From Saprospiraceae bacterium (GTDB taxonomy: Bacteria > Bacteroidota > Bacteroidia > Chitinophagales > Saprospiraceae): 40,402 nucleotides of DNA. Position numbers and translations under genes: made by a program. The stretch is from positions 1 through 40,402 of the forward strand of contig JAYTMW010000057.1 of assembly GCA_043728105.1 (NCBI GenBank). The letters are read 5' to 3'. This document shows positions 1,392-40,152 of the stretch, in pieces. The notes beneath the pieces are model-generated. The model was not told the origin of the DNA, did not search any database, and was given only the letters and a program-made list of their open reading frames with translations. How positions within the stretch are numbered: position 1 is the first letter of the stretch; every line of letters starts with the position of its first letter.

Positions 1392-2276
1392 CTATCTAAA
1401 CCCCACCCCCACAAACCGCAAAACATCAGGCAAAGCCGACTTCGCATACTCCATATCATGCCCGCCGTCACGCATCCGATATTCGTGTGGGATTTGTTTT
1501 TTCGTCATCAAAAGATGCAGTGCGCAGTTGCCTTCCGAAAACGCATCATCGTCACCACAATCGAAATACCAACGGGTGTTTTTGAGGATTGGCAGCGGCA
1601 AAATTTCTATTAATTTGAAAATAGAATTTTTTTGAAAATAAGGGTTTAATCGGTCTGGGCCCCTCAGTTTTAAGCCAAATTTACCATCGAATCGAGCATC
1701 GTAATACCCATTGTCCATGTCAACAAACATCGAATCCGTGCGTACCGCCGCACTTAAACCTACGACGGCAGCAAACTTATCAGTGTGTTTCAATCCATAT
1801 AAAGTTGCCCCAAAACCACCCATTGAAACACCGACAATTGCACGATTTGTGCGTTCGGGTTTTGTTCGATAGGTTGAGTCAATAAAAGGTAGTAATTCTT
1901 TGATAAAATAATCTTCATAAAGCACTTTATTATCGTAGGTATTGAGGTAATAATCGTTTCTACCATCAGGCATCACGACAATCATTTCGGGAATTGATTT
2001 ATTCAAAATCAATTTATTTACCACCGAATCCACCTTGCCATACTTTGTCCAACCCTTTTCGTCGCCCCCTTGCCCATGCAATAAAAAGACAACGGGAAAG
2101 CGTTTTTGGCTGTATCTATATCCTTTCGGTAGGTAAATCGTGTATTTCATATCTTGACTCAAAATGGTACTTTTTACGCTACGGCTGTTCATAACCGTGC
2201 CTTTTTGTGCATTAAGTGGAACATAAGCAAGCAAAATCAGCAAAATACTGAGGGGGTAGATGTAACTTGGAATCAT
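1392..2276 (-). CDS. Secreted esterase (putative-esterase / esterase D-like alpha/beta hydrolase)
   Basis: 294-aa ORF with a signal peptide. LLHGQGGDE, nucleophile elbow GVSMGG (GxSxG), and CGDDD..GGH near the C-terminus. Confidence 0.8.
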   Translation of the reverse strand: MIPSYIYPLSILLILLAYVPLNAQKGTVMNSRSVKSTILSQDMKYTIYLPKGYRYSQKRFPVVFLLHGQGGDEKGWTKYGKVDSVVNKLILNKSIPEMIVVMPDGRNDYYLNTYDNKVLYEDYFIKELLPFIDSTYRTKPERTNRAIVGVSMGGFGATLYGLKHTDKFAAVVGLSAAVRTDSMFVDMDNGYYDARFDGKFGLKLRGPDRLNPYFQKNSIFKLIEILPLPILKNTRWYFDCGDDDAFSEGNCALHLLMTKKQIPHEYRMRDGGHDMEYAKSALPDVLRFVGVGFR

Positions 2277-2346
2277 AAAGTGGCTTTTGTTTTTTTATTA
2301 AATCTGATGAATATTAGCAACTATGAAGAACAAAGATAAAGGAAAT

Positions 2347-3228
2347 CTACTTAAAACCGACAGCCACAAACCGCAAAACATCGGGCAAAGCGGTGCGCCA
2401 ATATGTCCAATCATGCGCCCCATCACGCACCCGAAACTCGTGCGGTATTCTGCGTTTATTCATCAAAACATGCAAGGTGCAACTGCCTTCAATCAGATAA
2501 TCATCATCGCCGCAATCGAAATACCAACGAGTGGCTTTCAAGGTTGATTCGGGCATCGTTTCTATCAATTTCAACACCGAATTTTTCTGATAATAGTCGT
2601 TTACTTTGTTTAGGCCCCTCAGTTTTTGACCCAATTTGCTGTCAAAACGAGAATCGAAAAGGCTATCTGACAAGGCAATCATGGCTTCGTCTGTACGAAT
2701 TGCACTACTCAAACCCACACTTACTGAAAACATTTCGGAATGCTTCAAACCATACAAGGCCGCCCCATAGCCACCCATTGAGAGGCCCGCCAAAGCCCGT
2801 GAAGCCCGTTCAGGTTTGGTGCGAAAAGTGGAGTCCACAAAAGGCACGAGTTCTTTTATAAAATAATCTTCATACTTAAATTTTCCGTCAAAAGTATTCA
2901 AATAATAATCATTTCTACCATCGGGCATCACGATAATCATTTCGGGAATTGCTTTGGTTTCCATTAATTTGTTCGCCATGCTATCCGCTTTTCCTATCTT
3001 TACCCAATCGGTTTCGTTACCCGAATAACCGTGCAATAAATACAAAACAGGATACCGTTTTTGGCTCTTTTGATAACCATTTGGCAAATAAATATTGTAT
3101 TTCATCCCCTGTTTCAATATAGCACTTTTGATGATTTGGCTATTTAAAACGCTGCCTTGTTGGGCGTTTAATTGTAAAAAAACGCTTAAAATGATTAAAA
3201 TACTGAGGGGGTATTGACTATTTTTCAT
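2347..3228 (-). CDS. Secreted esterase, tandem paralog of 1392..2276
   Basis: 293-aa ORF alignable end to end with the neighbour (GLSMGG, CGDDD, RDGAHD). Same YPLSIL signal-peptide segment encoded by the 13-mer repeat. Confidence 0.8.
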   Translation of the reverse strand: MKNSQYPLSILIILSVFLQLNAQQGSVLNSQIIKSAILKQGMKYNIYLPNGYQKSQKRYPVLYLLHGYSGNETDWVKIGKADSMANKLMETKAIPEMIIVMPDGRNDYYLNTFDGKFKYEDYFIKELVPFVDSTFRTKPERASRALAGLSMGGYGAALYGLKHSEMFSVSVGLSSAIRTDEAMIALSDSLFDSRFDSKLGQKLRGLNKVNDYYQKNSVLKLIETMPESTLKATRWYFDCGDDDYLIEGSCTLHVLMNKRRIPHEFRVRDGAHDWTYWRTALPDVLRFVAVGFK

Positions 3229-3308: not shown

Positions 3309-3552
3309 GATAAATCCGACCTGTGCGATTAAAACATCTATCATCTTGAAACCACCGATTTTAATCGGTGGGTAAGTAACTACCACTAATGCCATCTATC
3401 TTCTTTTCAAAAACATCACATCTAATACATGCAGTATGTGATGTTTTTGAAAAGAAGATAGATGTGTTCCGTGGGTTTGCATGACCCACCGATTAAAATC
3501 GGTGGTTTCAAGATGATAGATGTTACCGAACATTTTTAATCGCACAGGTTGG
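3309..3552. repeat. Nested palindromic element, copy A
   Basis: Outer arms cctgtgcgatt(3320)..aatcgcacagg(3548). Inner arms catctatcatcttgaaaccaccgatt / aatcggtggtttcaagatgatagatg. Central hairpin 3393..3463. Small GATT..AATC hairpins at 3352..3369 and 3487..3506. Related copy at 31132..31444, partial copy at 40293..40320. Confidence 0.85.
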
Positions 3553-3565: not shown

Positions 3566-6500
3566 CTACATTACCGTCCGTGTAACCACATTTTGCCGAT
3601 TAAAAAAGGTAATATTTTGCATACTTTCATCCATACCGATTGTTCGAGATTCTTGGCTCATAAATGAATGCCCCCACGGAAACTCTGTTAATCGGTTTTG
3701 TCCATTTTTCAACAAAATCAAGGCTTTTACTTCATTTTTCTCCACTTTAATCAGTTTTTTCACGGTCTTTTTAGGAGAAAAAACTTTTAAATCATCCTTA
3801 AACTGGGTGGCTAAAAGCAATTCATGGGTATTGTTTTGAACGGCAATACGGGTTAAAGCTCGTGCATCGTGCGGCACTACAAATCCACTCTGCTCAATAC
3901 TGAGGGGTACGAAATTTTTACCGTCTTTGTTCTTCAAAACCAAACCATTGAAGGCATCGGCCCGACCTTGTAGCAACTCCATACCAAAATCATTACCGAC
4001 CATCACCACATCTAACAAGCCATCGCCATCATAATCATACGTCATCATACCATACACGGGAGCGAGTTGCGCTTCTGTTGGCAACGGCGTTATTTTGAAC
4101 TTGCCATTGCCTACATTTTCGATAAAACTTGAATACATCCAATTGGCTTGCATTTTTTGTACGCCTTGCATTTCTTCTTTCGTGAAAACATCTTTAACCG
4201 CAGCACTGCCAAATGCCCCATACGTTTTGAATTTGGTACGAATCATCACCAATTGCTTAATCATATCGTCACGAGTATGGTAAAAATACTCCTGTTTTTT
4301 ACCCGTTGAATCCATCCAAAAGCACGAAATAAAGGGGTCATACAAGCCGTTTTTATCAAAATCTTTGGCGTAAATACTGAGGGGTTCATCCGATGAACAT
4401 TGGAAATAAGTATTTTTGCCAAAATTGCCACCGATGTAATCCATATCACCGTCATTGTCAAAATCACCGCCTACGAGACTATTCCACCACCCTATTTTAT
4501 CACCAATACCCGTTTGAGCCGTAACATTTATAAATTTCCCATTCTGATTTTGCAAAAAAGTCAAAGGCATCCACTCGCCCGCAAGGATTAAATCGGGTTG
4601 ATTGTCGCCGTTAAAATCGGTCCAAAGCGCATCACTCACCATGCCAATCATGGACAATTGAGGGCAAACCAATTCTGTAACATCCGTAAATTGAGGTTTA
4701 TTTTGCTTACTATCATTGCGTAAAAGATAGGTTTTATCCGCTTTTGGATAATTTTTAGCCATTAACCGACAAGTGCGGAGTAAATCCAAATCACCATCGC
4801 CGTCAAAATCCACAGCTTTCACGACCGAGCCACTTGACCGTATTTTTGGCAAACTAAGCGAATCTATTTTAAAATTGCCTTTGCCATCATTCACGCATAA
4901 AATATCTTGATACAATGCTGAACCCAATTCCGCTTGCCCGCTTCCCCGCACGATGTAGAGGTCATTGTCACCATCATTATCCGCATCGAAAAGCAACGTA
5001 CCCATGTCTTCCTCTTTTTTCTCCGAATTGGTTTTGTAAGCCACCTTTTTTTGTTGAAACGAGCCATTTGGTTGCTGCATAAACCACGTTTCATCCACCC
5101 CACTACCGCCACTGATGAAAAAATCTTCCAAACCATCCCCATTCACATCCCCCACGGCAATACTCGGATTATACTGTGAAAATTTATGTGGTAATGTTTT
5201 TTGAAAGTTAAAATCAATAAAATCAGTATCCTCACTTCTCCATTTCAAACCCAAAACAGTGACATCAGGCGTTGAAAAAGGCTGAAATACTGAGGGGCCT
5301 GTTGTTTGGTATTTGCTACCCGCTTCTTCAATAACCACAACTTGATTGAGATTAGGATTCGTTATTTTTTGACAAACTCCACTCGCCCATTTTACCAAAA
5401 CTGAATCTACTTTATTCGTTTGCCCCAAACCAAAATGGACAATATCTTCTGATTTAGACAAATATCCACGACCCGAAGCGAGTTGTGCAACTTGTTTTTG
5501 ACCATTAAAAAACGCCGTTACTACCGCCCCATAAGCAAGGCTGTTGGACGACGGCCCCCTCAGTTTTAAGCGCAAAAAATTGTTTTTCTGCGCTTTTTTA
5601 TCGTCATTAAGTGTATTCTTAAAAACAAATGCTTTATCATTCATATTATTCACGACAATGTCTAAGTCTCCATCATTGTCTAAATCTGCGTAAGCCGAGC
5701 CGTTGGAAAATGACGTTTTCACATCCAAACCCCACTCTTTTGACGCATTAGAAAATTTCAAATTACCTTCATTTTTAAACATAAAATTAGGCACTTTTAT
5801 CTGCGGAATTTGTTTTTGCAAATCCATTTCTGTCATCAAATAACTCACGCCACTCCGAAAAGCCCCAAAATCATGATCTGTCACATCTCTTGGAAAACCA
5901 TTCGTGACATAAATATCTCGATTCCCATCGTTATCGAAATCCGCCATCAAAGGTGACCAACTCCATTCGGTCTCTTGCACATTTGCCATGAACGAGACAT
6001 CACTAAAAATAGGCAAACCCGTTTGCGGATTTAGCCCTTGATTGAGTTGTAGCGTGTTCCGTGCATATTGATATTCGTAGCCATACGTTTCGTTGTTGAT
6101 GTAAGACGTGTAGTTATTGGCATTAAGGAAAAGTTTTTTACGCTTATTGTGATAGGGCAACATTTCAGTTGTGAACATATCCAATTTACCATCGTTGTTG
6201 ATGTCCGCAACATCACTACCCATTGCAGAATTTGATTGATGTTTGAAAACCGAAGCTACTTCATTTTTAAAAGTACCATTTTTTTGATTGATATAAATTA
6301 AATCATTCGTAAGGTAGTCGTTAGCTACGTATATATCGAGCCAACCATCTTCATTAAAATCTAAAATCAGGCTGCTGTGAGAATAACCGTCATATTTAAT
6401 GCCCGCTTGTGTCGAACAATCCGTGAATACGGGATGTCCTAAACTCTGATTAAAGTCGTTTCGATAGAGTCTATCTTTATTAACCGTATTTTCTCTTTTA

Positions 6501-7117
6501 TCTTTGGTAAAAAATTGATTTGGATAAGGCGTGTCCATGTAATTCACGCCAATAAAAAGGTCTAAATCACCATCATTATCGTAGTCAAAAAACTGGGCAT
6601 TAGCGGAATGAGTGGTGTCAGATATGCCATACTCTTGGGCTGATTCTTTGAACAAAGGTACCCCCTCAGTATTTCCCCCATTTATGTAGAGTAAATTTTT
6701 TCTTTTTTCTGGATTATTCAAAAAAGTATTACAAACATAAATATCCAACTTACCGTCTTGATTGATGTCGATGAGACTAACACCTGCCGACCATTCGCCG
6801 TTTTTTTTCAAAACATTGGCTTTTTCGGTTATGTCTTCAAAAGATAGATTGCCCCGATTGAGGTAGAGTTTGTTTTGCACTTGGTTGCCCGTGAAAAAGA
6901 GGTCTTGCAAACCGTCACCGTTTAAGTCACCAACCGCCACACCACCGCCGTTGTAGATGAATTCGGAATTAATAATCGTTAAAGTGTCATTTTCAGTGAT
7001 TTGATTGTTGAAATCAATGCCTGATTGGGTGCTGTCGAGTAATTGGAATAATGTTTTTTTGTTGTTGCACGCACTCAACCCCAACGTGATGCAAAAAATG
7101 TATATAATTTTCCTCAT
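3566..7117 (-). CDS. FG-GAP/VCBS-repeat lipoprotein with ASPIC/UnbV-like domain (CRTAC1-like)
   Basis: 1194-aa ORF. I prefer ATG at 7117 (MRKIIYIFCITLGLSAC lipobox) over 7150. Many D-x-D/N-x-D-G-x-x-D FG-GAP calcium-site repeats. Central UnbV/ASPIC-like stretch LRLKLRGPSSNSLAYGAVVTAFFNGQKQV..GRGYLSKSEDIVHFGLG. Confidence 0.85.
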   Translation of the reverse strand: MRKIIYIFCITLGLSACNNKKTLFQLLDSTQSGIDFNNQITENDTLTIINSEFIYNGGGVAVGDLNGDGLQDLFFTGNQVQNKLYLNRGNLSFEDITEKANVLKKNGEWSAGVSLIDINQDGKLDIYVCNTFLNNPEKRKNLLYINGGNTEGVPLFKESAQEYGISDTTHSANAQFFDYDNDGDLDLFIGVNYMDTPYPNQFFTKDKRENTVNKDRLYRNDFNQSLGHPVFTDCSTQAGIKYDGYSHSSLILDFNEDGWLDIYVANDYLTNDLIYINQKNGTFKNEVASVFKHQSNSAMGSDVADINNDGKLDMFTTEMLPYHNKRKKLFLNANNYTSYINNETYGYEYQYARNTLQLNQGLNPQTGLPIFSDVSFMANVQETEWSWSPLMADFDNDGNRDIYVTNGFPRDVTDHDFGAFRSGVSYLMTEMDLQKQIPQIKVPNFMFKNEGNLKFSNASKEWGLDVKTSFSNGSAYADLDNDGDLDIVVNNMNDKAFVFKNTLNDDKKAQKNNFLRLKLRGPSSNSLAYGAVVTAFFNGQKQVAQLASGRGYLSKSEDIVHFGLGQTNKVDSVLVKWASGVCQKITNPNLNQVVVIEEAGSKYQTTGPSVFQPFSTPDVTVLGLKWRSEDTDFIDFNFQKTLPHKFSQYNPSIAVGDVNGDGLEDFFISGGSGVDETWFMQQPNGSFQQKKVAYKTNSEKKEEDMGTLLFDADNDGDNDLYIVRGSGQAELGSALYQDILCVNDGKGNFKIDSLSLPKIRSSGSVVKAVDFDGDGDLDLLRTCRLMAKNYPKADKTYLLRNDSKQNKPQFTDVTELVCPQLSMIGMVSDALWTDFNGDNQPDLILAGEWMPLTFLQNQNGKFINVTAQTGIGDKIGWWNSLVGGDFDNDGDMDYIGGNFGKNTYFQCSSDEPLSIYAKDFDKNGLYDPFISCFWMDSTGKKQEYFYHTRDDMIKQLVMIRTKFKTYGAFGSAAVKDVFTKEEMQGVQKMQANWMYSSFIENVGNGKFKITPLPTEAQLAPVYGMMTYDYDGDGLLDVVMVGNDFGMELLQGRADAFNGLVLKNKDGKNFVPLSIEQSGFVVPHDARALTRIAVQNNTHELLLATQFKDDLKVFSPKKTVKKLIKVEKNEVKALILLKNGQNRLTEFPWGHSFMSQESRTIGMDESMQNITFFNRQNVVTRTVM

Positions 7118-7162
7118 AAGAGTAAAGATATTTAAAAACCTAAAAATCAAATCAAAACAGGT

Positions 7163-8704
7163 TTATTTTAATTTATTTTCCATGAATAAAAACGGTAGTA
7201 TTTTCTCAGTTCTCTCATTTTTATTACTGTTTCCCGCCAAACTTATCACAAAAGAACCCAAAAGAATATCTATATCGCCATCGCCGTCGGCATCTCCAAT
7301 ATCCATTGTCATCCATCTGCCTTGCGTTGCTTCTTTGAATGTGTAAGGTTTAAATTTGAAAGTTTGAGTTTGCTCAAGGTATAAAAAATGAGCTTCGGGT
7401 TTTGTTTTATCGCTTGGGAACATAGAAGTTACAACAATATCCATGTCGCCATCGGCATCAAAGTCAGCGGCTCTTGCTTGGAACGCTCCGTTCATAGGAT
7501 AGAATACCCCCTCAGTAAAATTATCTTTTCCGTCATTTAAAAACACTCTCACGCCGTGGTATGGTTTCAAAATGGGTGAAAAATCTTCATTATCACCATT
7601 TGTGTAGAGAATATCAGTCGTACCGTTTTTGTCGAAATCCAATAATTGTATGTCGCATGAACCATAAACAGACGGAAACTGCAAGACTTGTTTTTCCGTA
7701 AAACTACCATCTTTTTTGGCGTAATAAATATTAATACACTCATTGCCTTGTGCCATCAAAACGGCTAAATCTATCAATCCATCTTTGTTAAAATCGTGTG
7801 GAATAACCTTACTGGCACCTGCCATACCCGACAATGCTACGCCATTCCAGATTTGATTTTTTTTCTTATAAAAAGACAATTGACCTTTTTGGTAGCCATA
7901 TTCACAAATTGCAACGCCTGATTCATTGTTTTGGGCATCAACTGCCGCCATAAAAGTAGGGCGTTTTAGATTTCGTAAGAGCGTTGTGTTTTGTTTAGAT
8001 TTCAGATCTAATTGAAACAGTGCACCCTCAAACTGTTCGTTTGGATGAATCTGACCTATGCCCAAAACCAACCATTTTTCATTGTTGGAACGGATAAGAC
8101 CAACTGGTGGCGAAGAAAAATTATAGGTGTTTTCAATTGTAATGTCTTTTTTTTGCGTAGCGAGCGTGAGAAGGCGACCATCAAACAGACCAATATTCAA
8201 ACGCTTGTTGAGGGTGTCAATTTTCGTCATTGTTAGCAGTGGCGGAATGTTCGTTTCAGAGATTTTTTTAAGGTTAAATCCTTTTAATAATTGAACATTT
8301 TGCCTCTGATACTGAGGGGGTATCAAAGAATCGGGTGCTTCTTTTTTATAAAAATCTACTATTTTATGCCAATCTTCTTCATTAATTAAGGGTGTAGTTG
8401 GGTAGATGTTTTCGGTTTCAATCATCATTTTATCGAACTCTCCCATTTTTGCAAACGGGTCATAGTTGGCTGTTTTGATGCCGAGACGTGCGCCCATATT
8501 GGGCAAAAGTTCTTTGATCCAAGTTTTTTTATCCAAAAGACTTGGTTCGGGATATTGATGACAGTTGCCACAATAGATTTGAGCAAGTTCGTTGCCTAAC
8601 TTGCCCGAAGGCTTTAAAGTTATATTTTGCTGACTCGAAGTGGATGTATTTTGGCAATTTTGAAAGACAACTACAACCACGATAAAAATAATAATTTTCT
8701 TCAT
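7163..8704 (-). CDS. FG-GAP/VCBS-repeat protein with N-terminal CXXCH (heme c-type) motif
   Basis: 513-aa ORF with a hydrophobic N-terminus ending VFQNC. CGNCH motif. C-terminal repeats DFDADGDMDIVV and DADGDGDIDILL. Confidence 0.75.
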   Translation of the reverse strand: MKKIIIFIVVVVVFQNCQNTSTSSQQNITLKPSGKLGNELAQIYCGNCHQYPEPSLLDKKTWIKELLPNMGARLGIKTANYDPFAKMGEFDKMMIETENIYPTTPLINEEDWHKIVDFYKKEAPDSLIPPQYQRQNVQLLKGFNLKKISETNIPPLLTMTKIDTLNKRLNIGLFDGRLLTLATQKKDITIENTYNFSSPPVGLIRSNNEKWLVLGIGQIHPNEQFEGALFQLDLKSKQNTTLLRNLKRPTFMAAVDAQNNESGVAICEYGYQKGQLSFYKKKNQIWNGVALSGMAGASKVIPHDFNKDGLIDLAVLMAQGNECINIYYAKKDGSFTEKQVLQFPSVYGSCDIQLLDFDKNGTTDILYTNGDNEDFSPILKPYHGVRVFLNDGKDNFTEGVFYPMNGAFQARAADFDADGDMDIVVTSMFPSDKTKPEAHFLYLEQTQTFKFKPYTFKEATQGRWMTMDIGDADGDGDIDILLGSFVISLAGNSNKNERTEKILPFLFMENKLK

Positions 8705-8816: not shown

Positions 8817-8820
8817 CTTG

Positions 8821-8853: not shown

Positions 8854-8894
8854 TTTTGGCTTTAATTCAGAAATAACTGAAAACTAAGGTACAA

Positions 8895-32809: not shown

Positions 32810-32815
32810 ACACAT

Positions 32816-33069: not shown

Positions 33070-33093
33070 GTGCTAATACTGAGGGGGTATCTT

Positions 33094-33139: not shown

Positions 33140-33158
33140 TTCCGTCTCAAAAAGGCTA

Positions 33159-33327
33159 TCATTGCGAGTGCTACGAAGCAATCTGCCATGTTTCTTCCGA
33201 TTCCCTTTCTCCATGTTTTTTCAATTGCTAAAATTAAGGGTATGCCCTCTTACAAAAATTTAAGTGTGGGGAAAAGGAGAATCGTAGGTCAAATGACAGA
33301 TTGCTTCGTCGTTCCTCCTCGCAATGA
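33159..33327. repeat. Inverted-repeat pair of the cattgcgag..acgaagcaatc type
   Basis: tcattgcgagtgctacgaagcaatctgccat (33159..33189) versus atgacagattgcttcgtcgttcctcctcgcaatga (33293..33327). It yields the spurious peptide DCFVVPPRNDT, which I recall seeing in repeat-derived ORFs of other genomes. Confidence 0.7.
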
Positions 33328-33361
33328 CACGTTGATTTGGCAAAAGTGTGGGTGCGTTTTT

Positions 33362-33399
33362 CATTATTTCAGTTTCACAGTTTTTGCGTTTTGCAGTTT
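33362..33399 (+). repeat. CAGT-box array c: boxes at 33370, 33378, (33386 degenerate), 33394
   Basis: tcattatttcagtttcacagtttttgcgttttgcagtttt, 8-bp phasing. Confidence 0.75.
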
Positions 33400-33447
33400 T
33401 ATATAAATCATTTATTATGTCTTCTTTAATTTAAAAGAAACAAAAAC

Positions 33448-33477
33448 ACGTTTTTCAGTTTCGCAGTTTTTCAGTTT
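33448..33477 (+). repeat. CAGT-box array d: boxes at 33456, 33464, 33472
   Basis: cgtttttcagtttcgcagtttttcagttt, 8-bp phasing. Confidence 0.75.
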
Positions 33478-33865
33478 AAATCAATTTCCATTTTGAAAAA
33501 AGAAATTCAGGACTGAATAAAAACAGTCAAACAATCAAAGTTTAATTTTTTGATTAAAGCCAAATTGAAATTTAATCAAAAATGAAGGTTTGAAGCATGA
33601 GGATTTTGATAAAACTCAAAACAGTTGTCAAAAAAACAATTTCGTGGAAATACGGCATTCCTGCCATTGGGGACTCACAAATTGTAGTTGATACCTCCAA
33701 AACGCCTTAAATTCAAAATAAACAATCAATTTGTGCCAAAAAATGCTTAATTAAAAACATTCCGTGTATCCATTTAGACTTTGGAAGCCTTTTCGCTATT
33801 GGATGTCCAATCCTATTCCTTTTCTCACTTTTCCCTTTTTACCTTTTCTCCTTTCTTCCTTTTTG

Positions 33866-33911
33866 CAGTAAAAAAGTTTTTACTTTTTTCAGTTAATCAG
33901 TTTTGCAGTCT
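33866..33911 (+). repeat. CAGT-box array e overlapping the parA promoter: boxes at 33866, 33890, 33898, 33906
   Basis: gcagtaaaaaagtttttacttttttcagttaatcagttttgcagtc. All boxes fall on one 8-bp register. Confidence 0.75.
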
Positions 33912-33931
33912 CAAAAATCGTTTTATATTTG
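33902..33931 (+). promoter_or_regulatory. Candidate parA promoter (TTTG ..18 nt.. TAtaTTTG)
   Basis: TTTG 33902..33905 and TATATTTG 33924..33931, 30 nt upstream of the parA ATG. The -33 element abuts the CAGT box at 33906. Confidence 0.45.
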
Positions 33932-33960
33932 CACCATAAAACTTTAAACGAAGTATTTTT

Positions 33961-34614
33961 ATGAAAATAGGTGTCTCAAATTTAAAAGGTGGCGTAGGTA
34001 AAACGACCATTGCTCAAAATCTTGCAGTTTGCTTCGCACACATGGGTTACAAGGTGTGCATCGTGGATACGGATACGAACCAAAACTCGCTTGCATGGTC
34101 GGGTGTGCGGGACGAAAGTTTGCCTGGCATTTTGGTTGTGGGCGCAACGGATTCAAAAGCCTTGAACAAAACCGTGGACAAACTCGACCGTGACCACGAG
34201 ATTGTTATCATTGACGGAACGCCTTCGTTGTCAGAAATGACGACTCGGATTATCCTATCAAGTGATATTCTTTTAATTCCCATTTTGCCAAGCGGACATG
34301 ATTTCAGGGCCATGACTCAATTTGTGGAACGCTATGAACAAGCAAAAGAGTTTAAAGCCGAAATTCCCGCTTATTTCATTCTCAATCAATTTTCTGAAAA
34401 TCTCAATGTGCATCAAGATATGAAAAACATGCTGACGCAATTTGAATTGGGCATTATGGAAACCACCGTCAACAAGCGGGTTTCGTATGTCCGCACAGGT
34501 ATTGAGGGCAAGGGTGTGTATGAGTCAAACGACGATAAGGCAAAGGAGGAAATGGTAAAATTGACCCAGGAGGTTTTGAAATTAGCGCATCAATATAAAT
34601 TCGTGGAAGATTGA
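33961..34614 (+). CDS. parA: ParA-family partition ATPase (small type Ib-like)
   Basis: 217-aa ORF with deviant Walker A NLKGGVGKTT. DTDTNQNS, IIDGTP. Confidence 0.9.
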   Translation: MKIGVSNLKGGVGKTTIAQNLAVCFAHMGYKVCIVDTDTNQNSLAWSGVRDESLPGILVVGATDSKALNKTVDKLDRDHEIVIIDGTPSLSEMTTRIILSSDILLIPILPSGHDFRAMTQFVERYEQAKEFKAEIPAYFILNQFSENLNVHQDMKNMLTQFELGIMETTVNKRVSYVRTGIEGKGVYESNDDKAKEEMVKLTQEVLKLAHQYKFVED

Positions 34615-34710
34615 ATTAGGATTATAAGGATCTTAGAGGGATTTAATAGGATTTTTACCAACAGAAAAAATCCTATTAAATCCTTCTAAAAATCCTTATA
34701 ATCCTAATTC
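34613..34710. repeat. 98-bp imperfect palindrome immediately after the parA stop
   Basis: gaattaggattataaggatcttagagggatttaataggattttt - accaacag - aaaaaatcctattaaatccttctaaaaatccttataatcctaattc. Confidence 0.85.
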
Positions 34711-34759
34711 AATTTTACATAAAACATTCACAATCAATCATTTATATAATTTCGTTACA

Positions 34760-35140
34760 ATGACAAAAGATAAAAAAACAGATTACAGCAAATTAAGCCT
34801 CGGCGCAAAAGTTCCGATGAAAGCCGCTACCATAGCCGCAGTTGAACCCGTAGCACCAAAACCTGTTGCGGCAAAAGCCGTGAAAGCAAAAGTGGAAAAG
34901 GTAGAAAAAGCAATCGAATCGCCTAAACAACCTACTAAAATGGAAGCTGCCGTGAAAGCAATTCACGCCACGCCACTCCCTCGCATGATGAAACCTACCA
35001 AAACCGAAGAACGCACTTTGCGGGTCACTTTGGATATTCCGTTGTCGCTTCATGCCCAAATACGCACCAAAACTTTTCAAGAAGGCATCTCTATGAAAGA
35101 ATATTTCTTGGAAATGGCAAAAAAGGAAATGGGGATTTAG
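34760..35140 (+). CDS. ParG-like partition/centromere-binding protein (disordered A/K/P-rich N-terminus plus C-terminal ribbon-helix-helix)
   Basis: 126-aa ORF downstream of parA. The C-terminus RTLRVTLDIPLSLHAQIRTKTFQEGISMKEYFLEMAKKE fits a beta-strand/helix/helix RHH pattern. Confidence 0.6.
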   Translation: MTKDKKTDYSKLSLGAKVPMKAATIAAVEPVAPKPVAAKAVKAKVEKVEKAIESPKQPTKMEAAVKAIHATPLPRMMKPTKTEERTLRVTLDIPLSLHAQIRTKTFQEGISMKEYFLEMAKKEMGI

Positions 35141-35178
35141 TTATTAGTTATTAGTTATTAGTTATTAGTTATTAGTTT
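35137..35178 (+). repeat. Tandem heptad array (TTAGTTA) x6
   Basis: ttagtta repeated five times exactly, sixth unit ttagttt. Starts within the stop codon of the RHH gene. Confidence 0.9.
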
Positions 35179-35191
35179 GAAACGTGATTTT

Positions 35192-35253
35192 GCGTTTTGC
35201 AGTTTTGCAGTTTATCATTTTTACAGTTTTTCATTTAATCATTTTTGCAGTTA
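35192..35253 (+). repeat. CAGT-box array f: boxes at 35200, 35208, 35224, 35248, with degenerate GCGT/CATT boxes at 35192, 35216, 35232, 35240
   Basis: tgcgttttgcagttttgcagtttatcatttttacagtttttcatttaatcatttttgcagtt. Eight consecutive positions of one 8-bp register. Confidence 0.8.
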
Positions 35254-35374
35254 AGAAGCCTATTTTTCTATGTTTGATTAGCCTTATTTTTTGTTTTTGC
35301 TTAAAAAAGACAAAAATGTGGCTCAAATCTCGAAAAATACTGAGGGGGTAGGGGATAACGAACATAAAATTATT

Positions 35375-36361
35375 ATGGAAGAGAATTTATTTAATTTAGA
35401 TAATTTCAATAGCTTAGAACCTAAGAAAAATAGGACGAAAGCGGAAGGCGGGGTGAGCAAAATCACGCAGCGCATTCTTGAAGGTGCGGTTGCGGTGCGG
35501 TTGGATAGGGCGAGCATTGAAGATGCGATTTTTCAGCATTCGGTGTTGTGCCAAACGTTTTTGCCCTATCGCAACCCCGGTGACGAAACCAAAATTTGGC
35601 AACAAAAACAAGGCAATGTCAGTTTGGCGGTGCAAGCCAACCACGTTTTGAATCCTGAAACGGGCGAATTTGAGTTCGTGGGTCTGCCTTATGGGACAAA
35701 ATCCCGCTTGATTTTGGCGCATATCAACTCCGAAGCGGTGAAAACCCAGAACCGTTTGATTGACGTGGAGGAGAGTATGACCGCTTTTATCAAAAAATTG
35801 GGCTTGAATACCGATGGGCGAACCATCAAAGAAGCGAAGGAACAATTGCGCCGTTTGACCGCCTCAATTATCAGTATTGGTTATTCCGATGGTGAAAAAG
35901 GGATGCAAGTGGATTTAAAAATCGTGAAAGCCTTTGACCTTTGGTTTCCAAAAGACCAACGCCAACGGGTGCAATGGACTTCAAAAATCCAACTCACCGA
36001 AGAATATTTCACGAGTTTGATAAACCATGCGATTCCTTTGGACGAAAGGGCGTTGGCGGCGTTGTCTCATAATGCGATGGCACTCGATATATATGCGTGG
36101 CTTGCGCAGAGGTTGCACCGCATTGATTTTAATAAACCACAATTTGTTGCATGGCAAAACCTCAAAGAGCAATTCGGACAAGGCTATGACCGCATGGATA
36201 AGTTCAAAGAGGTGTTTCGCCGCACTTTGAAAATCGTGTTGACGCAATACCCGACTGCCAAATTGTCAGAGGATAAGAACAAAGGTTTTTATCTCTACAA
36301 TTCGCCTTCGCCGATTCCACCAAAGATTATTCACTTGATTGAAAACCCGCCAAAGTTCTAA
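35375..36361 (+). CDS. repA: Plasmid replication initiator protein (Replication initiator protein A / RPA-like RepA)
   Basis: The ORF track starts at 35291, but that extension reads through the 13-mer repeat. ATG at 35375 (MEENLFNL..) is preferred. LPYRNPGDE..GLPYGTKSRLILAHINSEAVKTQNRLIDVEESMTAFIKKLGL..DGRTIKEAKEQLRRL matches my recollection of the RPA family. Iterons follow directly. Confidence 0.75.
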   Translation: MEENLFNLDNFNSLEPKKNRTKAEGGVSKITQRILEGAVAVRLDRASIEDAIFQHSVLCQTFLPYRNPGDETKIWQQKQGNVSLAVQANHVLNPETGEFEFVGLPYGTKSRLILAHINSEAVKTQNRLIDVEESMTAFIKKLGLNTDGRTIKEAKEQLRRLTASIISIGYSDGEKGMQVDLKIVKAFDLWFPKDQRQRVQWTSKIQLTEEYFTSLINHAIPLDERALAALSHNAMALDIYAWLAQRLHRIDFNKPQFVAWQNLKEQFGQGYDRMDKFKEVFRRTLKIVLTQYPTAKLSEDKNKGFYLYNSPSPIPPKIIHLIENPPKF

Positions 36362-36683
36362 CGTGCAGTTTGGTGGAGTTTAGCCAAAAAAAAGGGATAA
36401 ATACTGAGGGGGTGACTTTTCCACGTGCAGTTTGGTGGAGTTTGGTTAAAAACAAGGGCATTTTAAGGCTTTTAAAAATAATCCACGTGCAGTTTGGTGG
36501 AGTTTAGGGGTAAAAAGGAGTAAGCGTGTCTTTATTCACGTGCAGTTTGGTGGAGTTTAGGTGAAAAAGCGATATTCCAACTATAACTCTTCCTTTCAAA
36601 AAGTTATTCACGTGCGGTTTGGGAGTATTATTACCAAAAAGCACGTGTAGTTTGGGATATACGTCACGTGCAGTTTGGTGGAC
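36360..36683 (+). repeat. Seven direct iterons (consensus CACGTGCAGTTTGGTGGAGTTTAG): candidate oriV
   Basis: Copies start at about 36360, 36422, 36484, 36538, 36609 (cacgtgcggtttgggag), 36642 (cacgtgtagtttggga) and 36665. All share one orientation, with spacings 62, 62, 54, 71, 33 and 23 bp. An AT-rich stretch with three CCTATA boxes follows (36687..36770). Confidence 0.85.
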
Positions 36684-36866: not shown

Positions 36867-36986
36867 AAATCCATTTTTTGATTAGAAGCAATGAAAATAT
36901 GATGCCTTTGGCTTCATCAAGCTGAAAGCATGACTGAGGGGCCTCCTTTTTGAAAATGCTTACATTTGGAATATGCTTTCTTATAT

Positions 36987-37224
36987 CAGATATTTTTTTT
37001 AGGAAAAACGAAGAGGTAATTTCGCCCGTTCATCTTCTAACGTATCTTTTAGAATTTGGCGGAAGGACATTCATCCATATTTTAACTTTTAATCGCAAAG
37101 GTCATGTAAAAACGACCAAAATACTGAGGGGCCCCTTTTGCCAAATTTTAAAAGATACGTTAGAAGATGAACGGGGCAAATTACCTCTTCGTTTTTCTTA
37201 AAAAAAATATCTAATTTGGAAAAA
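36987..37224. mobile_element. MITE-like element, second full copy; almost the entire element is one long hairpin
   Basis: Ends cagatattttttttaggaaaaacgaagaggtaat / attacctcttcgtttttcttaaaaaaaatatctaatttggaaaa. Inner arms 37024..37061 versus 37140..37177. The centre carries aatactgaggggcc. Confidence 0.8.
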
Positions 37225-37473: not shown

Positions 37474-40068
37474 ATGTTTAAGAAACCTAAAAGCAACATC
37501 CTTTTGAGGATTCATTTTTTTTGTGCCTTTTTCCTACTTACCATTACAGCGTTTGCTCAAAAAGCAACAATTGTAAGGGGACGAGTAACTGATGAAAAAG
37601 GCAAAGAGGCTTTGCCTTACGTCAATGTTCAATTCGATGGCACTTCCATCGGTGCAACGTCTGATATTGACGGCAATTTTTATTTAGAAACGAAAACCTC
37701 GGTTTCTAAGCTCAAAGTCTCCTACGTGGGCTATCGAACCCAAACGGTTGCCATAAATCAAGGTCAAATGAATGAAGTTTCCGTGAAATTGGTGGAAGGC
37801 TCAAACGATTTGCAAGTGTTGGAGGTGAAGGTTGCGAAGTATCGCAACAAAGGCAATCCCGCCGTTGAGTTAATCAAAAAAGTAATTGACCACAAAGATC
37901 AAAACCGCAAATCAGGTTTTAAATCTTACCAATACAACAAATACGAGAAGGTAGAATTTGCCCTAAACGGCATTTCGGACTCGTTTCGGAACAACCGTTT
38001 CATGAAAAAAGTGGATTTTGTCTTTCAAATTGCCGACACTAATAAGGCTTCGGGAAAAGTCAATTTACCGTTTTATTTGCGTGAACGTCTTTCAGATGTC
38101 TATTACCGCAAAGACCCAAAAGCTGAAAAAGAGCTTGTAAAAGGGGAACATACCACCAAAATGCCCGAGACTTTGGATGATGCGGGTATTTCCGATTACA
38201 TCAATAATCTTTATCAAGAGGTTGATATTTACAACAACCAAATTGAGTTGGTGCGGGTCAATTTTGTGAGTCCATTGAACCCCATTGCGCCTACTTTTTA
38301 CCGTTTTTACATCCAAGATACAAGCGTAGTGAAGGGCGTAAGTTGCGTGCATCTTTATTTTGCCCCCCGCAATAAAATGGATTTGGCGTTCATTGGTCAC
38401 ATGTGGGTGTCGTTGGAAGACTCATCTTATGCCGTCCGAAAAATAGAAATGGGTGTTCCAAAAGACATCAATTTGAATTTTGTGAGAGAAATGGAGATAC
38501 GCCAAGAATTTGATTGGGTAGAGACACCTGACAGTGTTGGTGGCGGTAAAAGTCGTGGCTTGATGCTGTCAAAAGACATTGCTTTAATGGATTTTGCGGT
38601 GGCAAAAGAAGGTCAAAAATCCATAATGGGTACGAAAACAGTCTCTTTTAAAGATTATCAAATCAATCAGCCTATCAAAAACGAGGTTTTTAATGGGTTA
38701 AATAAGGTGATTATGGTCGGTGAAGCTCGACATCAAGATGACTCATTTTGGGTTGAAAGTCGTCATGATTCACTTAACAAACATGAACAAGGCATCTTTA
38801 AAACGATGGATAGCCTCGATAATAGCAAGCCTTATCGGCGTTTTCTTTGGTACACTCATTTGCTGACGACGGGTTCTGCCCGAGTGGGCGTGGTTGATTT
38901 GGGGCCCATGATGTCGCTTTATAGTTTCAACCCCGTGGAAGGTTCGAGGTTTCGTTTAGGCGGTCGTACCAATCCAAGATTTAGCGAAACTGTATTGCTG
39001 GAAGGCTACGCAGCGTATGGTATGAGAGACAATCGTTGGAAGTATTTTGCAGGCGCACGTTTCTTTTTAGGGGGCAAAGCAACGGATAGAGATTCGTTGA
39101 CCCAAGCTCGAATCTGGTATCAAAACGATGTGCGGGTGCCTGGGCAAGACCTTCTTTTTATTCAAGAAGATGCGTTCTTTGCGTCATTTCGTCGAGGTGT
39201 CAACAACAAGATATTTTATCAGACTATGGCAGGTGTAGAGTTTCAAAAATTGGGAAATGGCATTACATATACGGTGGGTATGAAAAAACTCATCACTCGC
39301 CCTTCCGATTCGTTGATTTTTAACCGTGAGGTAGTGGATAGAACAACGCCAATACCGATTGAAAGCATTAATTCGACCGAATTGAACCTTAGTATTCGTT
39401 ATGCACCCAACGAAATTGTATATCAAGGAGCGAGAAATCGTCGGACTTTGCGGTCAAAATATCCGATTATTCAAGCGTGGTATTCTTACGGTATCAAAGA
39501 CTTTTTAGGCGGTGACTATGAATACCATAATCTTCGACTTAGAGCAAAAAAGACTTTTTATTTTCCCGTTGCGGGCTTTGCAGATGTGACCCTCGAAGGT
39601 GGAAAAGTATTTGGTCAATTGCCATATCCGTTGCTCATTCCGCACCGTGCCAACCAACTTTATTACAATATGGTTGACTCTTATAATTTGATGAATTTCT
39701 TAGAATTTGTGAGTGATAAATACGCTTCGGTCAACGTCTATTACAACATGGGCGGCTTTTTATTAAACCGTATTCCTTTGATTCGTCAGTTAAAATGGCG
39801 TGAAGCATTCACTTTCAAAGCTGTTTGGGGCAGTTTAGATGATAAAAATATACCAAGTAAAGAAAATGGCATGTTGCAATTTGCGAAAGCGGAAGACGGT
39901 AGCCCATATACTCATTCGTTGGAAAAAGCACCTTATATTGAAGCCTCTGTGGGCATTTCTAATATCTTCAAATTATTGCGTGTTGACTACATTCGCCGCT
40001 TGAATTATTTGAATTTGCCGAATGTAGATACTTGGGGTATTCGGGCGAGAATTGCTGTTTCTTTCTAA
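37474..40068 (+). CDS. DUF5686-like outer-membrane protein with carboxypeptidase-regulatory-like N-terminal domain
   Basis: 864-aa ORF with a signal peptide. IVRGRVTDEKGKEALPYVNVQFDGTSIGATSDIDGNFYLE. Length and architecture as I recall for DUF5686 proteins. C-terminal aromatic residue (..RIAVSF). Confidence 0.65.
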   Translation: MFKKPKSNILLRIHFFCAFFLLTITAFAQKATIVRGRVTDEKGKEALPYVNVQFDGTSIGATSDIDGNFYLETKTSVSKLKVSYVGYRTQTVAINQGQMNEVSVKLVEGSNDLQVLEVKVAKYRNKGNPAVELIKKVIDHKDQNRKSGFKSYQYNKYEKVEFALNGISDSFRNNRFMKKVDFVFQIADTNKASGKVNLPFYLRERLSDVYYRKDPKAEKELVKGEHTTKMPETLDDAGISDYINNLYQEVDIYNNQIELVRVNFVSPLNPIAPTFYRFYIQDTSVVKGVSCVHLYFAPRNKMDLAFIGHMWVSLEDSSYAVRKIEMGVPKDINLNFVREMEIRQEFDWVETPDSVGGGKSRGLMLSKDIALMDFAVAKEGQKSIMGTKTVSFKDYQINQPIKNEVFNGLNKVIMVGEARHQDDSFWVESRHDSLNKHEQGIFKTMDSLDNSKPYRRFLWYTHLLTTGSARVGVVDLGPMMSLYSFNPVEGSRFRLGGRTNPRFSETVLLEGYAAYGMRDNRWKYFAGARFFLGGKATDRDSLTQARIWYQNDVRVPGQDLLFIQEDAFFASFRRGVNNKIFYQTMAGVEFQKLGNGITYTVGMKKLITRPSDSLIFNREVVDRTTPIPIESINSTELNLSIRYAPNEIVYQGARNRRTLRSKYPIIQAWYSYGIKDFLGGDYEYHNLRLRAKKTFYFPVAGFADVTLEGGKVFGQLPYPLLIPHRANQLYYNMVDSYNLMNFLEFVSDKYASVNVYYNMGGFLLNRIPLIRQLKWREAFTFKAVWGSLDDKNIPSKENGMLQFAKAEDGSPYTHSLEKAPYIEASVGISNIFKLLRVDYIRRLNYLNLPNVDTWGIRARIAVSF

Positions 40069-40152
40069 TTATTTAGTTAGAATAATTTTTACAAAATATT
40101 GATAATCAACCCTTTGCGAGTATTTTTTATTGAAAATACTGAGGGGGTATAT

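Follow-up and report, generated by a model that had tools for sequence, protein, structure and literature searches.

A non-palindromic word of 10 to 16 bases, aAAATACTGAGGGGGT, recurs about once per kilobase in a plasmid-like contig that encodes ParA and RepA, and sequence searches suggest that at least 19 uncultured Saprospiraceae species bear it genome-wide. We put the chance at somewhat better than even that this word is a specificity sequence for DNA uptake in one Saprospiraceae lineage, kept by molecular drive, and it would most likely be a functional analogue of the USS of Haemophilus and the DUS of Neisseria.

Copies in the window and in related genomes

The window, by which we mean the whole 40.4-kb stretch of DNA analysed, is nearly all of a 41.7-kb metagenome scaffold. 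We write the core of the word as TACTGAGGGG and its extended form as aaAATACTGAGGGG(G/T)t. Exact AATACTGAGGGGG occurs 17 times in the window (11 on the plus strand and 6 on the minus strand), with no copy in 100 dinucleotide shuffles, and exact ACTGAGGGG occurs 31 times, compared to 0.06 in shuffles and 0.06 to 0.15 expected from Markov models of order 1 to 3. Beside these 31 cores there are four one-mismatch copies, at 21615, 22041, 24177 and 28510, giving 35 copies in total. Spacing of the word is near-random (coefficient of variation of 0.93). A previous sequence-only reading of this DNA had listed 17 exact copies, every one of which we recovered at exactly the same start, and 17 further sites, all of which are present within 0 to 4 nt (14 with an exact 9-mer core and 3 with one mismatch). 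The site at 22041 was absent from that list and may be a chance occurrence. The copies are given below, L119 being an orthologous region.

1658-1673, minus: exact core, TTAAAACTGAGGGGCC; sense in esterase ORF 1392-2276, KLRG; missing in orthologue L119
2242-2257, plus: exact 16-mer; antisense in esterase ORF 1392-2276, PLSI at aa 8; common to L119
2613-2628, minus: exact core; sense in esterase ORF 2347-3228, KLRG; missing in L119
3197-3212, plus: exact 16-mer; antisense in esterase ORF 2347-3228, PLSI at aa 7; common to L119
3894-3909, plus: exact core; antisense in FG-GAP/ASPIC ORF 3566-7150, PLSI at aa 1082; A-I-E-L in motif-free relatives
4371-4386, plus: exact core; PLSI at aa 923; CCC CTC AGT ATT kept by three lineages with the word; word-free lineages read PLTL
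5284-5299, plus: exact core; GPSV at aa 618, hypervariable loop; other frames and opposite orientation in homologues
5554-5569, minus: exact core; KLRG at aa 529; window only, KLKG in closest homologues
6660-6675, minus: exact 13-mer; NTEGV at aa 161; L119 word interrupted by a 30-nt insertion
7506-7521, minus: exact core; sense in FG-GAP ORF 7163-8704, FTEGV
8306-8321, plus: exact core; antisense in ORF 7163-8704, PPQY
8817-8832, plus: left arm of inverted pair; intergenic, downstream of SusD gene
8842-8857, minus: exact 16-mer; right arm of the pair with 8817-8832
14604-14619, minus: exact core; intergenic, adjoins GC-rich palindrome
15364-15379, minus: exact 13-mer; sense in TonB-dependent receptor ORF 15110-17452, ILRG; common to L119
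17211-17226, minus: exact 13-mer; TonB-dependent receptor ORF 15110-17452, NTEGV; common to L119
18846-18861, minus: exact 13-mer; sense in CN-hydrolase ORF 18392-19111, NTEGG
20110-20125, minus: exact 13-mer; intergenic, convergent spacer; stop of ORF 19228-20109 lies 3 nt before
21613-21628, minus: one mismatch, AAAATATTGAGGGGGT; intergenic
22036-22051, plus: one mismatch, CAGATACGGAGGGGTA, perhaps a degenerate copy; oxidoreductase ORF 21962-23122, antisense; maybe chance
23172-23187, plus: exact 16-mer; intergenic, divergent spacer
24143-24158, minus: exact core, arm of inverted pair; intergenic
24172-24187, plus: one mismatch; pairs with 24143-24158 as second arm
26611-26626, plus: exact core; precedes the 538-aa gene call, at the ORF 24953-26683 5' end
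26896-26911, plus: exact 16-mer; intergenic, adjoins GC-rich palindrome
28403-28418, plus: exact 16-mer; intergenic
28505-28520, plus: one mismatch, AAAATACTGAGAGGGT; intergenic
29561-29576, plus: exact 16-mer; intergenic; 3' end of MFS gene 29586-30773 is 12 nt away
32591-32606, plus: exact 16-mer; intergenic, against CAGTTTTG-type repeat array
33073-33088, plus: exact 13-mer; intergenic, against second repeat array
35334-35349, plus: exact 16-mer; N-terminus of repA ORF, NTEGV
36398-36413, plus: exact 13-mer; between iterons, downstream of repA
36928-36943, plus: exact core, weak flanks; intergenic
37118-37133, plus: exact core; intergenic
40133-40148, plus: exact 16-mer; intergenic; DUF5686 gene stop 70 nt before

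The copy at 26611-26626 has a two-mismatch version in a paralogous leader at 820-1000, and MITE-like palindromic elements are present elsewhere in the window.

Given that the window is nearly the entire scaffold, the frequency of the word outside it was checked on related genomes, where the word proved equally frequent. An excess confined to this window, which the earlier reading had named as evidence against itself, is thus not what these genomes show. Scanned against one genome for each species, the 16-mer matched almost only Saprospiraceae MAGs, comprising 19 species with matches on chromosomal contigs, and each of these has 0.34 to 1.0 further cores per kb, while three chance matches in other taxa come with no further cores. 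Two syntenic loci picked by protein, independently of the word, contain 19 and 22 cores per 23.6 kb, and no copy of the word is present in four relatives at equal distance that share the SusC-SusD-FG-GAP synteny. These four, which include a Lewinellaceae MAG, also lack any other abundant 10-mer. Flanking positions vary among species in a dialect-like manner. The word is also found on three phage-like IMG/VR contigs (one with a terminase and a virion protein, another with a lysozyme) at ∼0.6 to 1 per kb, at or near host density; temperate Pasteurellaceae phages likewise accumulate USS (PMC6776037).

Constraint on coding copies

ORFs make up 78% of the window and hold 17 of the 35 copies, consistent with the previous estimate of at least 14; for one or two close to an ORF 5' end, the true start may lie farther downstream. 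Peptides at these copies match those already named (PLSI, PSV, PPQY, NTEGV/TEG and KLRG/ILRG) and represent the five stop-free frames, the sixth containing TGA. As had been suspected, codons used by the word are minor in window genes outside it (GGG 0.14, AGG 0.08, CTG 0.05, CTC 0.08, GAG 0.27 and CAG 0.17). Seven sites are common to an orthologous region of 83 to 88% identity, and the ∼12-nt core is identical in all seven, amounting by an eye count on the alignments to 0 differences in ∼84 nt compared to ∼12 expected at 86% identity. Synonymous sites within the word are identical across lineages, with CCC CTC AGT ATT unchanged between lineages whose proteins are 64 to 87% identical and PLTL present in word-free relatives. 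Within one protein loop, two lineages have the word antisense to the gene and a third has it in sense orientation, and the frames differ. The minor codons, the identity at synonymous sites and these swaps of frame and orientation bear out the suggestion that the constraint is on DNA rather than on protein.

Comparison of orthologues, a check which that reading had proposed, shows that coding copies arise through substitution in place rather than by insertion. Sites that differ between orthologous regions of 83 to 88% identity do so at 4 to 5 of ∼10 core positions at once, by substitution and with no indels. The two paralogous esterases of the window have the word at the same position, and both L119 orthologues lack it there. 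The core is nearly all-or-none, with 560 perfect 10-mers, 106 one-off versions (12.8 expected) and no excess of two-off versions. This state and the 4- to 5-position differences are not obviously predicted by simple gradual drive, and the near all-or-none state leaves room for something newer.

Placement, phased flanks and alternative explanations

In total, 273 copies are on the plus strand and 280 on the minus strand, neighbouring copies have the same orientation in 56% of cases, and no link between orientation and GC skew was found (120 plus and 109 minus copies in skew-positive chunks, 105 and 118 in negative chunks). Equal strands and the lack of a skew link, the comparison recommended earlier, therefore indicate that the word is not Chi- or KOPS-like. 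A polar guide of recombination or chromosome segregation of that type would agree with the G-rich core GAGGGGG and with the 5- to 15-kb runs of one orientation in the window and in L119, but the word is 10 to 16 nt long and the orientation switch at ∼21.8 kb lies away from the replicon region (33 to 37 kb); taken with the strand balance and the neighbour concordance, this makes such a role highly improbable, and we largely reject it. Density is ∼2.5-fold higher in intergenic than in coding DNA (1.63 versus 0.67 per kb), peaks beside gene 3' ends and reaches 2.7 per kb in convergent and 1.3 per kb in divergent spacers, and copies in tandem spacers are shifted toward the upstream stop codon. Genes contain 63% of the copies, in every one of the five stop-free frames, and 7 of the 8 close pairs, which make up ∼3% of copies, are inverted. 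Intergenic enrichment, together with the MITE-like palindromes of the window, could be expected from a mobile repeat of MITE or REP type of which the word is the conserved core. However, flank conservation ends at ∼16 to 17 nt, so that the word is not the core of an ordinary MITE, the other outcome feared for the original proposal; most copies are in genes and in frame, and orthologues show substitutions without indels instead of insertions. We reject a small mobile unit, which has next to no chance of being correct.

The A/T tracts on the A-rich side of the word are helically phased at ∼10.7 bp, with A+T peaks at -3, -13, -23, -33 and -44 from the core and a Fourier amplitude of 0.034, whereas random sites do not exceed 0.007 and generic AAAAT gives 0.008. 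Phasing extends ∼100 bp on both sides, is visible for 4 to 9 turns, and in part rides on a general 10.8-bp periodicity that is unusually clear in word-bearing genomes. DNA wrapped on a protein surface leaves this type of signature, as at gyrase and nucleosome-type sites. An abundant cytoplasmic bending or wrapping protein (nucleoid-associated, or gyrase at a strong site) could read the 10-bp core as an anchor and wrap the flanks, with selection for chromosome organization keeping the sites, and the strength of the phasing over generic A-tracts, the general periodicity and the near-invariant core all favour it. We nevertheless consider it rather unlikely. Known nucleoid-protein sites are degenerate, and those of high information (parS, matS, Noc and SlmA) number tens per genome, unlike a near-invariant word at ∼1 per kb; the near-random spacing also speaks against it, and it explains neither the host-level density on phage-like and plasmid-like contigs nor sites forced into coding DNA with minor codons and amino acid changes.

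The all-or-none core, the simultaneous indel-free changes and the esterase paralogues would also suit an active, sequence-directed short-patch process (templated conversion, or a bias in repair as for VSP/HIP1) that writes and restores the word, its abundance being a by-product or selfish outcome with no signal read outside the cell. This is unlikely, as we know of no enzyme that restores a non-palindromic word of 10 to 16 bp, a ∼10-bp patch leaves the phased flanks without explanation, and very strong uptake bias with allelic patch replacement by transformation would give the same pattern. The similar density on chromosomal, plasmid-like and phage-like contigs fits any benefit to all DNA residing in these cells, including an orientation-free self tag, comparable to Chi without polarity, that a nuclease or defence system reads inside the cell, guarding resident DNA or marking foreign, word-free DNA. 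Chi sites are 5 to 8 nt, read on single strands and strongly polar, but the word is non-polar, and its phased flanks, being of a duplex type, point to a reader of double-stranded DNA; to our knowledge, there is no orientation-free self-tag system of such kind, and we regard this role as very unlikely.

A putative uptake signal in Bacteroidota

The USS of Haemophilus occurs at ∼1 per kb with no orientation bias and consists of a core and two AT-rich segments (Redfield et al. 2006). The word resembles the USS (AAGTGCGGT or ACAAGCGGT) in its density and equal orientations, its copies in genes in tolerated frames and enrichment between genes, its family-level distribution with subclade variants, its GC-rich core of ∼9 to 10 bp followed by one-sided A/T tracts spaced by about a helical turn, and its presence on phage-like contigs, matching the build-up of USS in temperate phages. 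It differs in its unrelated sequence and phylum, in phasing over 4 to 9 turns on both sides rather than two tracts, in having far fewer one-mismatch copies and few terminator-type inverted pairs, and in that its uptake role is a proposed one. With the DUS of Neisseriaceae (GCCGTCTGAA and dialects), a non-palindromic signal of 10 to 12 nt, it shares the density of ∼1 per kb, outer-position dialects by species, and coding and intergenic copies that avoid stop-containing frames. In contrast to the word, DUS have no flanking motifs; about half of the uptake signals of Neisseria and Pasteurellaceae are in terminators, and DUS form many inverted pairs, compared to ∼3% of word copies. DUS are bound by the receptor ComP, whereas for the word a receptor is inferred only. 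HIP1 of cyanobacteria (GCGATCGC), a methylation-linked 8-bp palindrome of debated function, is likewise a hyper-abundant, lineage-specific short word in and between genes, but the word is a non-palindromic 10- to 16-mer with phased flanks. Chi and KOPS/SRS are also over-represented G-rich oligomers, but of 5 to 8 nt and co-oriented with replication. REP/BIME and strong gyrase sites are comparable as repeated sites at which DNA is bent or wrapped and the flanks are periodic; REP elements, however, are palindromic and strictly extragenic, unlike a word with 63% of its copies in coding sequence.

As an uptake signal, the word would be recognized in competent cells by a surface receptor that binds duplex DNA at the GC-rich 10-bp core, and the in-phase A/T tracts would make the flank curved or easily bent, aiding DNA entry through an outer-membrane pore. 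Uptake and recombination would favour fragments carrying the word, and the word would therefore spread and be held at ∼1 per kb by molecular drive. Drive would act alike on chromosomes, long-resident plasmids and temperate phages, with copies settling where the protein or spacer tolerates them. The scarcity of inverted pairs, the long reach of the phasing and the orientation runs of 5 to 15 kb count against this reading. A pilin-signature scan limited to ∼0.8 Mb of loci gave no match, a result of little weight. Within the Bacteroidota, Riemerella is naturally competent with a preference for its own DNA, and Flavobacterium johnsoniae has homologues of type IV pilus-type uptake genes (PMC7965970).

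The sequence-only reading had offered, with hedges, an uptake signal, a tag for recombination or repair, or a very small mobile unit. Its lineage-wide, DNA-level signal like USS and DUS withstood all sequence tests run, the Chi-like word and the small mobile unit did not, and the plasmid-like nature of the contig and the phased A/T flanks are additions to what it had observed. Its remark that no such element was described for Bacteroidota agrees with our search, which found no description. Within this literature, uptake signals like those of Haemophilus and Neisseria are unreported in the Bacteroidota, and the word of these Saprospiraceae may well be one.

Abundance in the window and across a clade

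The 13-mer AATACTGAGGGGG is present in 17 exact copies in the window (6 minus, 11 plus), at precisely the starts reported by the sequence-only reading, and no copy arose in 100 dinucleotide-preserving shuffles of the window. The 17 further near-copies of that reading also proved real at every position. Its claim of an excess over compositional expectation held as well, since the 9-mer core ACTGAGGGG occurs 31 times in the window compared to 0.06 times in shuffles and 0.06-0.15 times under Markov models of order 1-3. Four more sites appear if one mismatch is permitted, three of them with the typical AAAAT flank and the fourth, at 22041, perhaps a chance match. Core density on this plasmid-like contig is 0.77 per kb, with near-random gaps between copies (coefficient of variation of 0.93). 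The word in the window is not its own reverse complement, which rules out a palindromic word of the HIP1 type.

The window represents nearly the whole of a 41,745-bp metagenome scaffold (ENA ERZ28573510, BUSI22-1_SAMN19433715 scaffold_842), whose genes include two esterases, two FG-GAP/ASPIC proteins, a SusC/SusD pair, TonB-dependent receptors, oxidoreductases and a Bro-N protein. It also carries a plasmid-type replicon:

32607-36573, plasmid-type replicon region with parA, repA, repeat arrays and iterons
33961-34614, parA, encoding ParA
35291-36361, repA, with a RepA_C domain
32607-33911 and 35187-35245, arrays of 8-bp-phased CAGTTTTG-type repeats adjoining the replicon
36361-36573, four 36-nt iterons (ACGTGCAGTTTGGTGGAGTTTAG...), about 62 nt apart, flanking the replicon

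The sign of the GC skew switches near 34 kb; the contig could represent a plasmid or else an integrated element. Because the window is nearly a whole plasmid-type scaffold, genome-wide frequency was judged on related sequences.

We scanned one genome per species (185,579 species) with the exact 16-mer AAAATACTGAGGGGGT and obtained at least 104 stretches. Among the matches listed, all but three stretches belong to metagenome-assembled genomes (MAGs) titled 'Saprospiraceae bacterium', with at least 19 species representatives. Most word-bearing MAGs listed carry glacier-type sample labels (GFS_, GL_, OTE_, VAR_); the others include one from Salar de Ascotan, with contigs of up to 470 kb, and one 'new MAG-358'; GCA_016787525.1 is among the word-bearing assemblies. 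The bias of choosing loci by the 16-mer was corrected by counting only extra copies and by adding loci selected by protein. Beyond the selecting copy, every word-bearing Saprospiraceae MAG listed holds a further 0.34-1.0 cores per kb, compared to no further core in the three other matches listed (WOR-3, a Chitinophaga MAG and an unclassified Bacteroidota MAG). The lowest density, 0.34 extra copies per kb, was seen in Salar_de_Ascotan AWA10 (among loci L015-L097), where the commonest 10-mers come from a GCGAAGCGAGC-type tandem repeat and not from the word. A BLAST search found no close copy of the window contig among the word-selected loci.

The protein-selected loci were fetched through the window's 1194-aa FG-GAP/ASPIC protein, independently of the word. 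Cores number 19 in 23.6 kb in the orthologous and syntenic locus L119 (87% amino-acid identity) and 22 in 23.6 kb in L122, from MAG-358 (64%), extending the claimed abundance beyond the window. Neither word cores nor any other abundant 10-mer could be found in L125 (66%), L124 (64%), L123 (62%) and L121 from a Lewinellaceae MAG (59%), four loci that keep the SusC-SusD-FG-GAP order and show protein divergence like that of the word-bearing loci. Word-free relatives include the assemblies GCA_964523725.1 and GCA_016713985.1. In the window and in nearly all word-bearing sets examined, the word ranks first among 10-mers, and it belongs to a clade, not to the window contig alone. Across word-bearing species the 10-mer core TACTGAGGGG is invariant, and the outer positions vary by species, the base three before the ACTGAGGGG core being A or T and the one directly after it G or T; these are mild dialects.

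Phased flanks and conservation as DNA

Alignment of 548 oriented copies from the window and 100 loci (649 kb) confined the information to aaAATACTGAGGGG(G/T)t, with none beyond about 16 nt, and gave the consensus aaAATACTGAGGGGGt. That the word is the core of an ordinary MITE, the refuting case named in the first reading, or a very small mobile unit, one of its proposals, is rejected: the flanks show no longer consensus, and the coding copies arose by substitution in place.

The A+T content of the aligned flanks oscillates at the helical repeat. It peaks at -3, -13, -23, -33, -44, -55 and so on up to about -99 on the A-rich side, and less strongly at +15, +25, +35, +45 and further out on the other, with the two arrays about 3 bp out of phase across the core. 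At 10.7 bp the Fourier amplitude reaches 0.034 upstream of the word and 0.015 downstream of it, compared to a maximum of 0.007 in 200 sets of random sites. Phasing is seen in coding and intergenic copies alike, and also among those that the 16-mer did not select; within the window by itself, A+T in successive half-turns runs 0.87, 0.40, 0.85, 0.54, 0.75, 0.56, 0.75, 0.52 and 0.76. Away from the word, too, these genomes show a general AT periodicity, of about 10.8 bp (autocorrelation lags 11, 22, 32, 43 and 54; pooled loci L002-L105, L119 and L122). Anchoring the alignment on generic AAAAT or on A-tract plus GC-tract patterns, however, gave about a quarter of the word's amplitude (0.008 for AAAAT). 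The phasing is therefore no mere by-product of genome periodicity and of the word's own A-tract: its flanks are specially phased, the first three to five turns being word-specific and the far tail perhaps owed to the genomic background.

Aligned genes of the window and L119 are 83-88% identical, and the two regions share 7 word sites, with 5 sites found only in the window and 2 only in L119. In all seven shared sites the core stretch of about 12 nt is identical, so that no difference falls in about 84 nt (hand count from the alignments) where about 12 would be expected at 86% identity, a probability near 3e-6 by hand arithmetic. Codon alignments show how the coding copies were gained. The codons CCC CTC AGT ATT (PLSI) stand at residue 923 in all three word-bearing lineages, compared to CCN CTN ACG CTN (PLTL), or PLRV, in word-free relatives; at residue 1082, A-I-E-L is replaced by PLSI, and at residue 529, KLKG or KIEG is replaced by KLRG. 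The gains came about by substitution in place, with no indel, at sites where the ancestral peptide was already nearly compatible, and insertion is thus ruled out as the origin of the coding copies. In a hypervariable loop near residue 618, the word runs antisense (GPSV) in the window and L119 and sense (TTTACTGAGGGGGGT) in MAG-358, and other homologues show PPQY, PLSI or NTEGG, which are the word in other frames. Whether the peptides at word sites are conserved in orthologues had been posed as a check on the first reading; the alignments show that the word is conserved as DNA and its peptides are not.

The window agrees in codon use and frame. Its coding copies occupy the five frames that avoid the word's TGA, yielding the antisense-strand peptides PLSI, PSV and PPQY and the sense peptides (N)TEG(V) and (K/I)LRG, and the codons of the word are minor ones in window genes outside it (GGG 0.14, AGG 0.08, CTG 0.05, CTC 0.08, GAG 0.27, CAG 0.17).

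Other features of the coding sequences were also observed. The tandem paralogous esterases (1392-2276 and 2347-3228) are about 70% identical in nucleotides, and each has the word in two matching places, the signal peptide (PLSI) and residue ~202 (KLRG); both L119 orthologues lack the latter copy. Several homologues of window 3566-7150 (among P0015-P0049) have an in-frame insert, ...KSEIRNPxSE[IL]V[HY], directly before the PLSIYAKDF word site, and in others a NTVDGGNPEAGGKG insert interrupts the NTEGV word site; both types may be further repeat-driven insertions in coding loops. The SusC/SusD genes are word-free in three lineages (window 8895-13912, L119 4705-9865, L122 4283-9491), and between the window and L119 they are 63-70% identical in nucleotides compared to 83-90% in the flanking genes. 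This single case suggests a recent cassette replacement by DNA from outside the clade.

Placement, orientation and neighboring repeats

With gene limits approximated by greedy ORF calls, 63% of the 553 cores in the pooled loci fall within ORFs, which account for 81% of the DNA; in the window this is 17 of 35 copies, in ORFs covering about 78%. Core density is 0.67 per kb in coding and 1.63 per kb in intergenic DNA, and among spacers it reaches 2.7 per kb in convergent, 1.7 in tandem and 1.3 in divergent ones. Within tandem spacers, 62 of the 107 copies fall in the 40% nearest the upstream stop and 27 in the 40% nearest the downstream start. A MITE or REP repeat is ruled out by the coding share, by the lack of any longer unit and by the absence of insertion gains.

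The two strands carry 273 and 280 of the 553 cores, coding copies are sense in 189 cases and antisense in 160, and adjacent copies share an orientation in 56%. The first reading had noted that a Chi-like word would be skewed; orientation proved unrelated to local GC skew in pieces of 4-24 kb, and together with the strand totals and neighbor concordance this rules out Chi- or KOPS-type polarity as far as a proxy test on such pieces can show. Copies less than 60 bp apart are inverted in 7 of 8 cases, and such close inverted pairs make up about 3% of copies; the window has two, at 8817-8857 and 24143-24187. Along window 14604-40148, a run of seven minus copies precedes 17 copies of which 16 are plus, and similar runs of 5-8 kb are seen in L119, against the pooled concordance of only 56%.

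The window also holds other repeats:

3331-3524 and 31136-31432, MITE-like palindromic family with inverted arms, two copies
28138-28374 and 36985-37215, second MITE-like palindromic family with inverted arms, two copies
20182-20349, 48-nt inverted repeat (98%) in a convergent spacer
858-986 and 26641-26769, minus strand, duplicated 129-nt 5' leader (87% identical) upstream of two genes

The arms of the two MITE-like families are 54-89 nt long and 74-91% complementary. A GC-rich palindrome, AGCGGGCGATTnAAATCGCCCGCT, occurs twice (14560-14591 and 26922-26953), each time adjoining a word copy, and the stretch between the two word copies 28403 and 28505 holds three further perfect palindromes (region 28420-28555). 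The duplicated leader contains a short ORF (MMKKLMCYF...) leading into a perfect 12-bp hairpin, CCGAAAACGGCG-TAA-CGCCGTTTTCGG, and may act as a leader-peptide or attenuator-type element. After one of the leader copies comes the word (26616), after the other a version of it with two mismatches. The window has no Rfam match and no tRNA, and with sense and antisense copy numbers being similar, an RNA element is ruled out as a reading of the word.

Phages carry the word as well. An IMG/VR scan returned 13 stretches, and three viral contigs have it at or near host density in both orientations. One of them encodes a terminase large subunit, a virion structural/tail-spike protein and a ParB-methyltransferase, with 15 cores in 15.9 kb; another word-bearing viral contig encodes a phage lysozyme. 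This resembles the temperate phages of Pasteurellaceae, which accumulate the uptake signal sequence (USS) of their hosts and have been used for tracing phage-host co-evolution (PMC6776037).

A candidate DNA-uptake signal

We lean towards the view that the word serves as a DNA-uptake specificity sequence. It occurs about once per kb, far above expectation, is shared by a clade with dialects, sits within genes in all stop-free frames and, by the proxy of strand totals and local GC skew, shows no strand or replichore bias. The intergenic enrichment and the accumulation in phages likewise match what is published for USS, and it is on these grounds that the uptake reading is favored. The 3'-end preference of intergenic copies would fit as well, with close inverted pairs being occasional, at about 3% of copies. 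A GC-rich core with A/T tracts spaced by one helical turn on one side is in particular the layout of the Haemophilus USS (Redfield et al. 2006, PMC1626085; a 2025 survey). The accepted cause of such words is molecular drive, in which a biased uptake machine and homologous recombination together enrich the preferred word. USS or the Neisseriaceae DNA uptake sequence (DUS) proper is ruled out by sequence and descent: the USS core is AAGTGCGGT or ACAAGCGGT and DUS is GCCGTCTGAA and its dialects, both different from the consensus derived here, whose hosts are Bacteroidota. As judged from sequence, the word is close to both in genomic behavior and a family member of neither by sequence or host. Natural competence can occur in Bacteroidota. 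Riemerella species show a preference for their own DNA, for which no motif is known, and homologues of ComEC, DprA and type IV pilus-type uptake genes are present in Flavobacterium johnsoniae (PMC7965970). Our pilin-signature scan over about 0.8 Mb of fetched loci gave no match, which tells little about any competence machinery of these genomes.

Several features sit less easily with the uptake reading, among them the orientation runs and the word-free SusC/SusD genes, and two properties of the word invite other explanations. It is nearly all or none: the pooled 697 kb contain 560 perfect 10-mers (0.1 expected) and 106 that are one position off (12.8 expected), those two positions off show no excess, and the inner ten positions have almost no single changes. 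Where the window and L119 differ at a site, four or five core positions have changed at once. Such jumps, together with the esterase copies that the window has and both L119 orthologues lack, could reflect an active conversion process; a very strong uptake bias with replacement of allelic patches could equally yield them. The other property is the phasing, which extends much further around our word than in USS and would also suit a cytoplasmic protein that wraps DNA. Taken to its end, this line of thought would make the word the anchor of a novel genome-marking system of Bacteroidota, not (or not only) an uptake signal, in which a protein would read the 10-bp core in a fixed rotational register with phased A/T tracts 50-100 bp to either side, active multi-base conversion would keep the all-or-none state, and plasmids and phages would be included. 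We regard this as improbable. Should the word not be an uptake signal, its extended helical phasing and all-or-none state would raise its interest, not lower it.

In the searchable literature, known uptake signals come from two proteobacterial families only, Pasteurellaceae and Neisseriaceae, and a survey of late 2025 still treats them as so confined. Our literature text searches found no paper on the word in a bacterial context, on uptake sequences in Bacteroidetes or on competence in Saprospiraceae. The word is usable as a taxon marker when contigs are binned, and could assign plasmids and temperate phages to hosts, as USS did (PMC6776037). Its sharp presence or absence among close relatives offers a comparative route to the putative receptor, through genes unique to word-bearing genomes, and the word added to donor DNA would be a handle toward genetic tractability of these bacteria. 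If the uptake reading is true, this environmental Bacteroidota clade would provide a third, independent case, meaning that uptake specificity evolves repeatedly, and would suggest natural transformation to be a major force in the Saprospiraceae of glacier-stream and lake biofilms.
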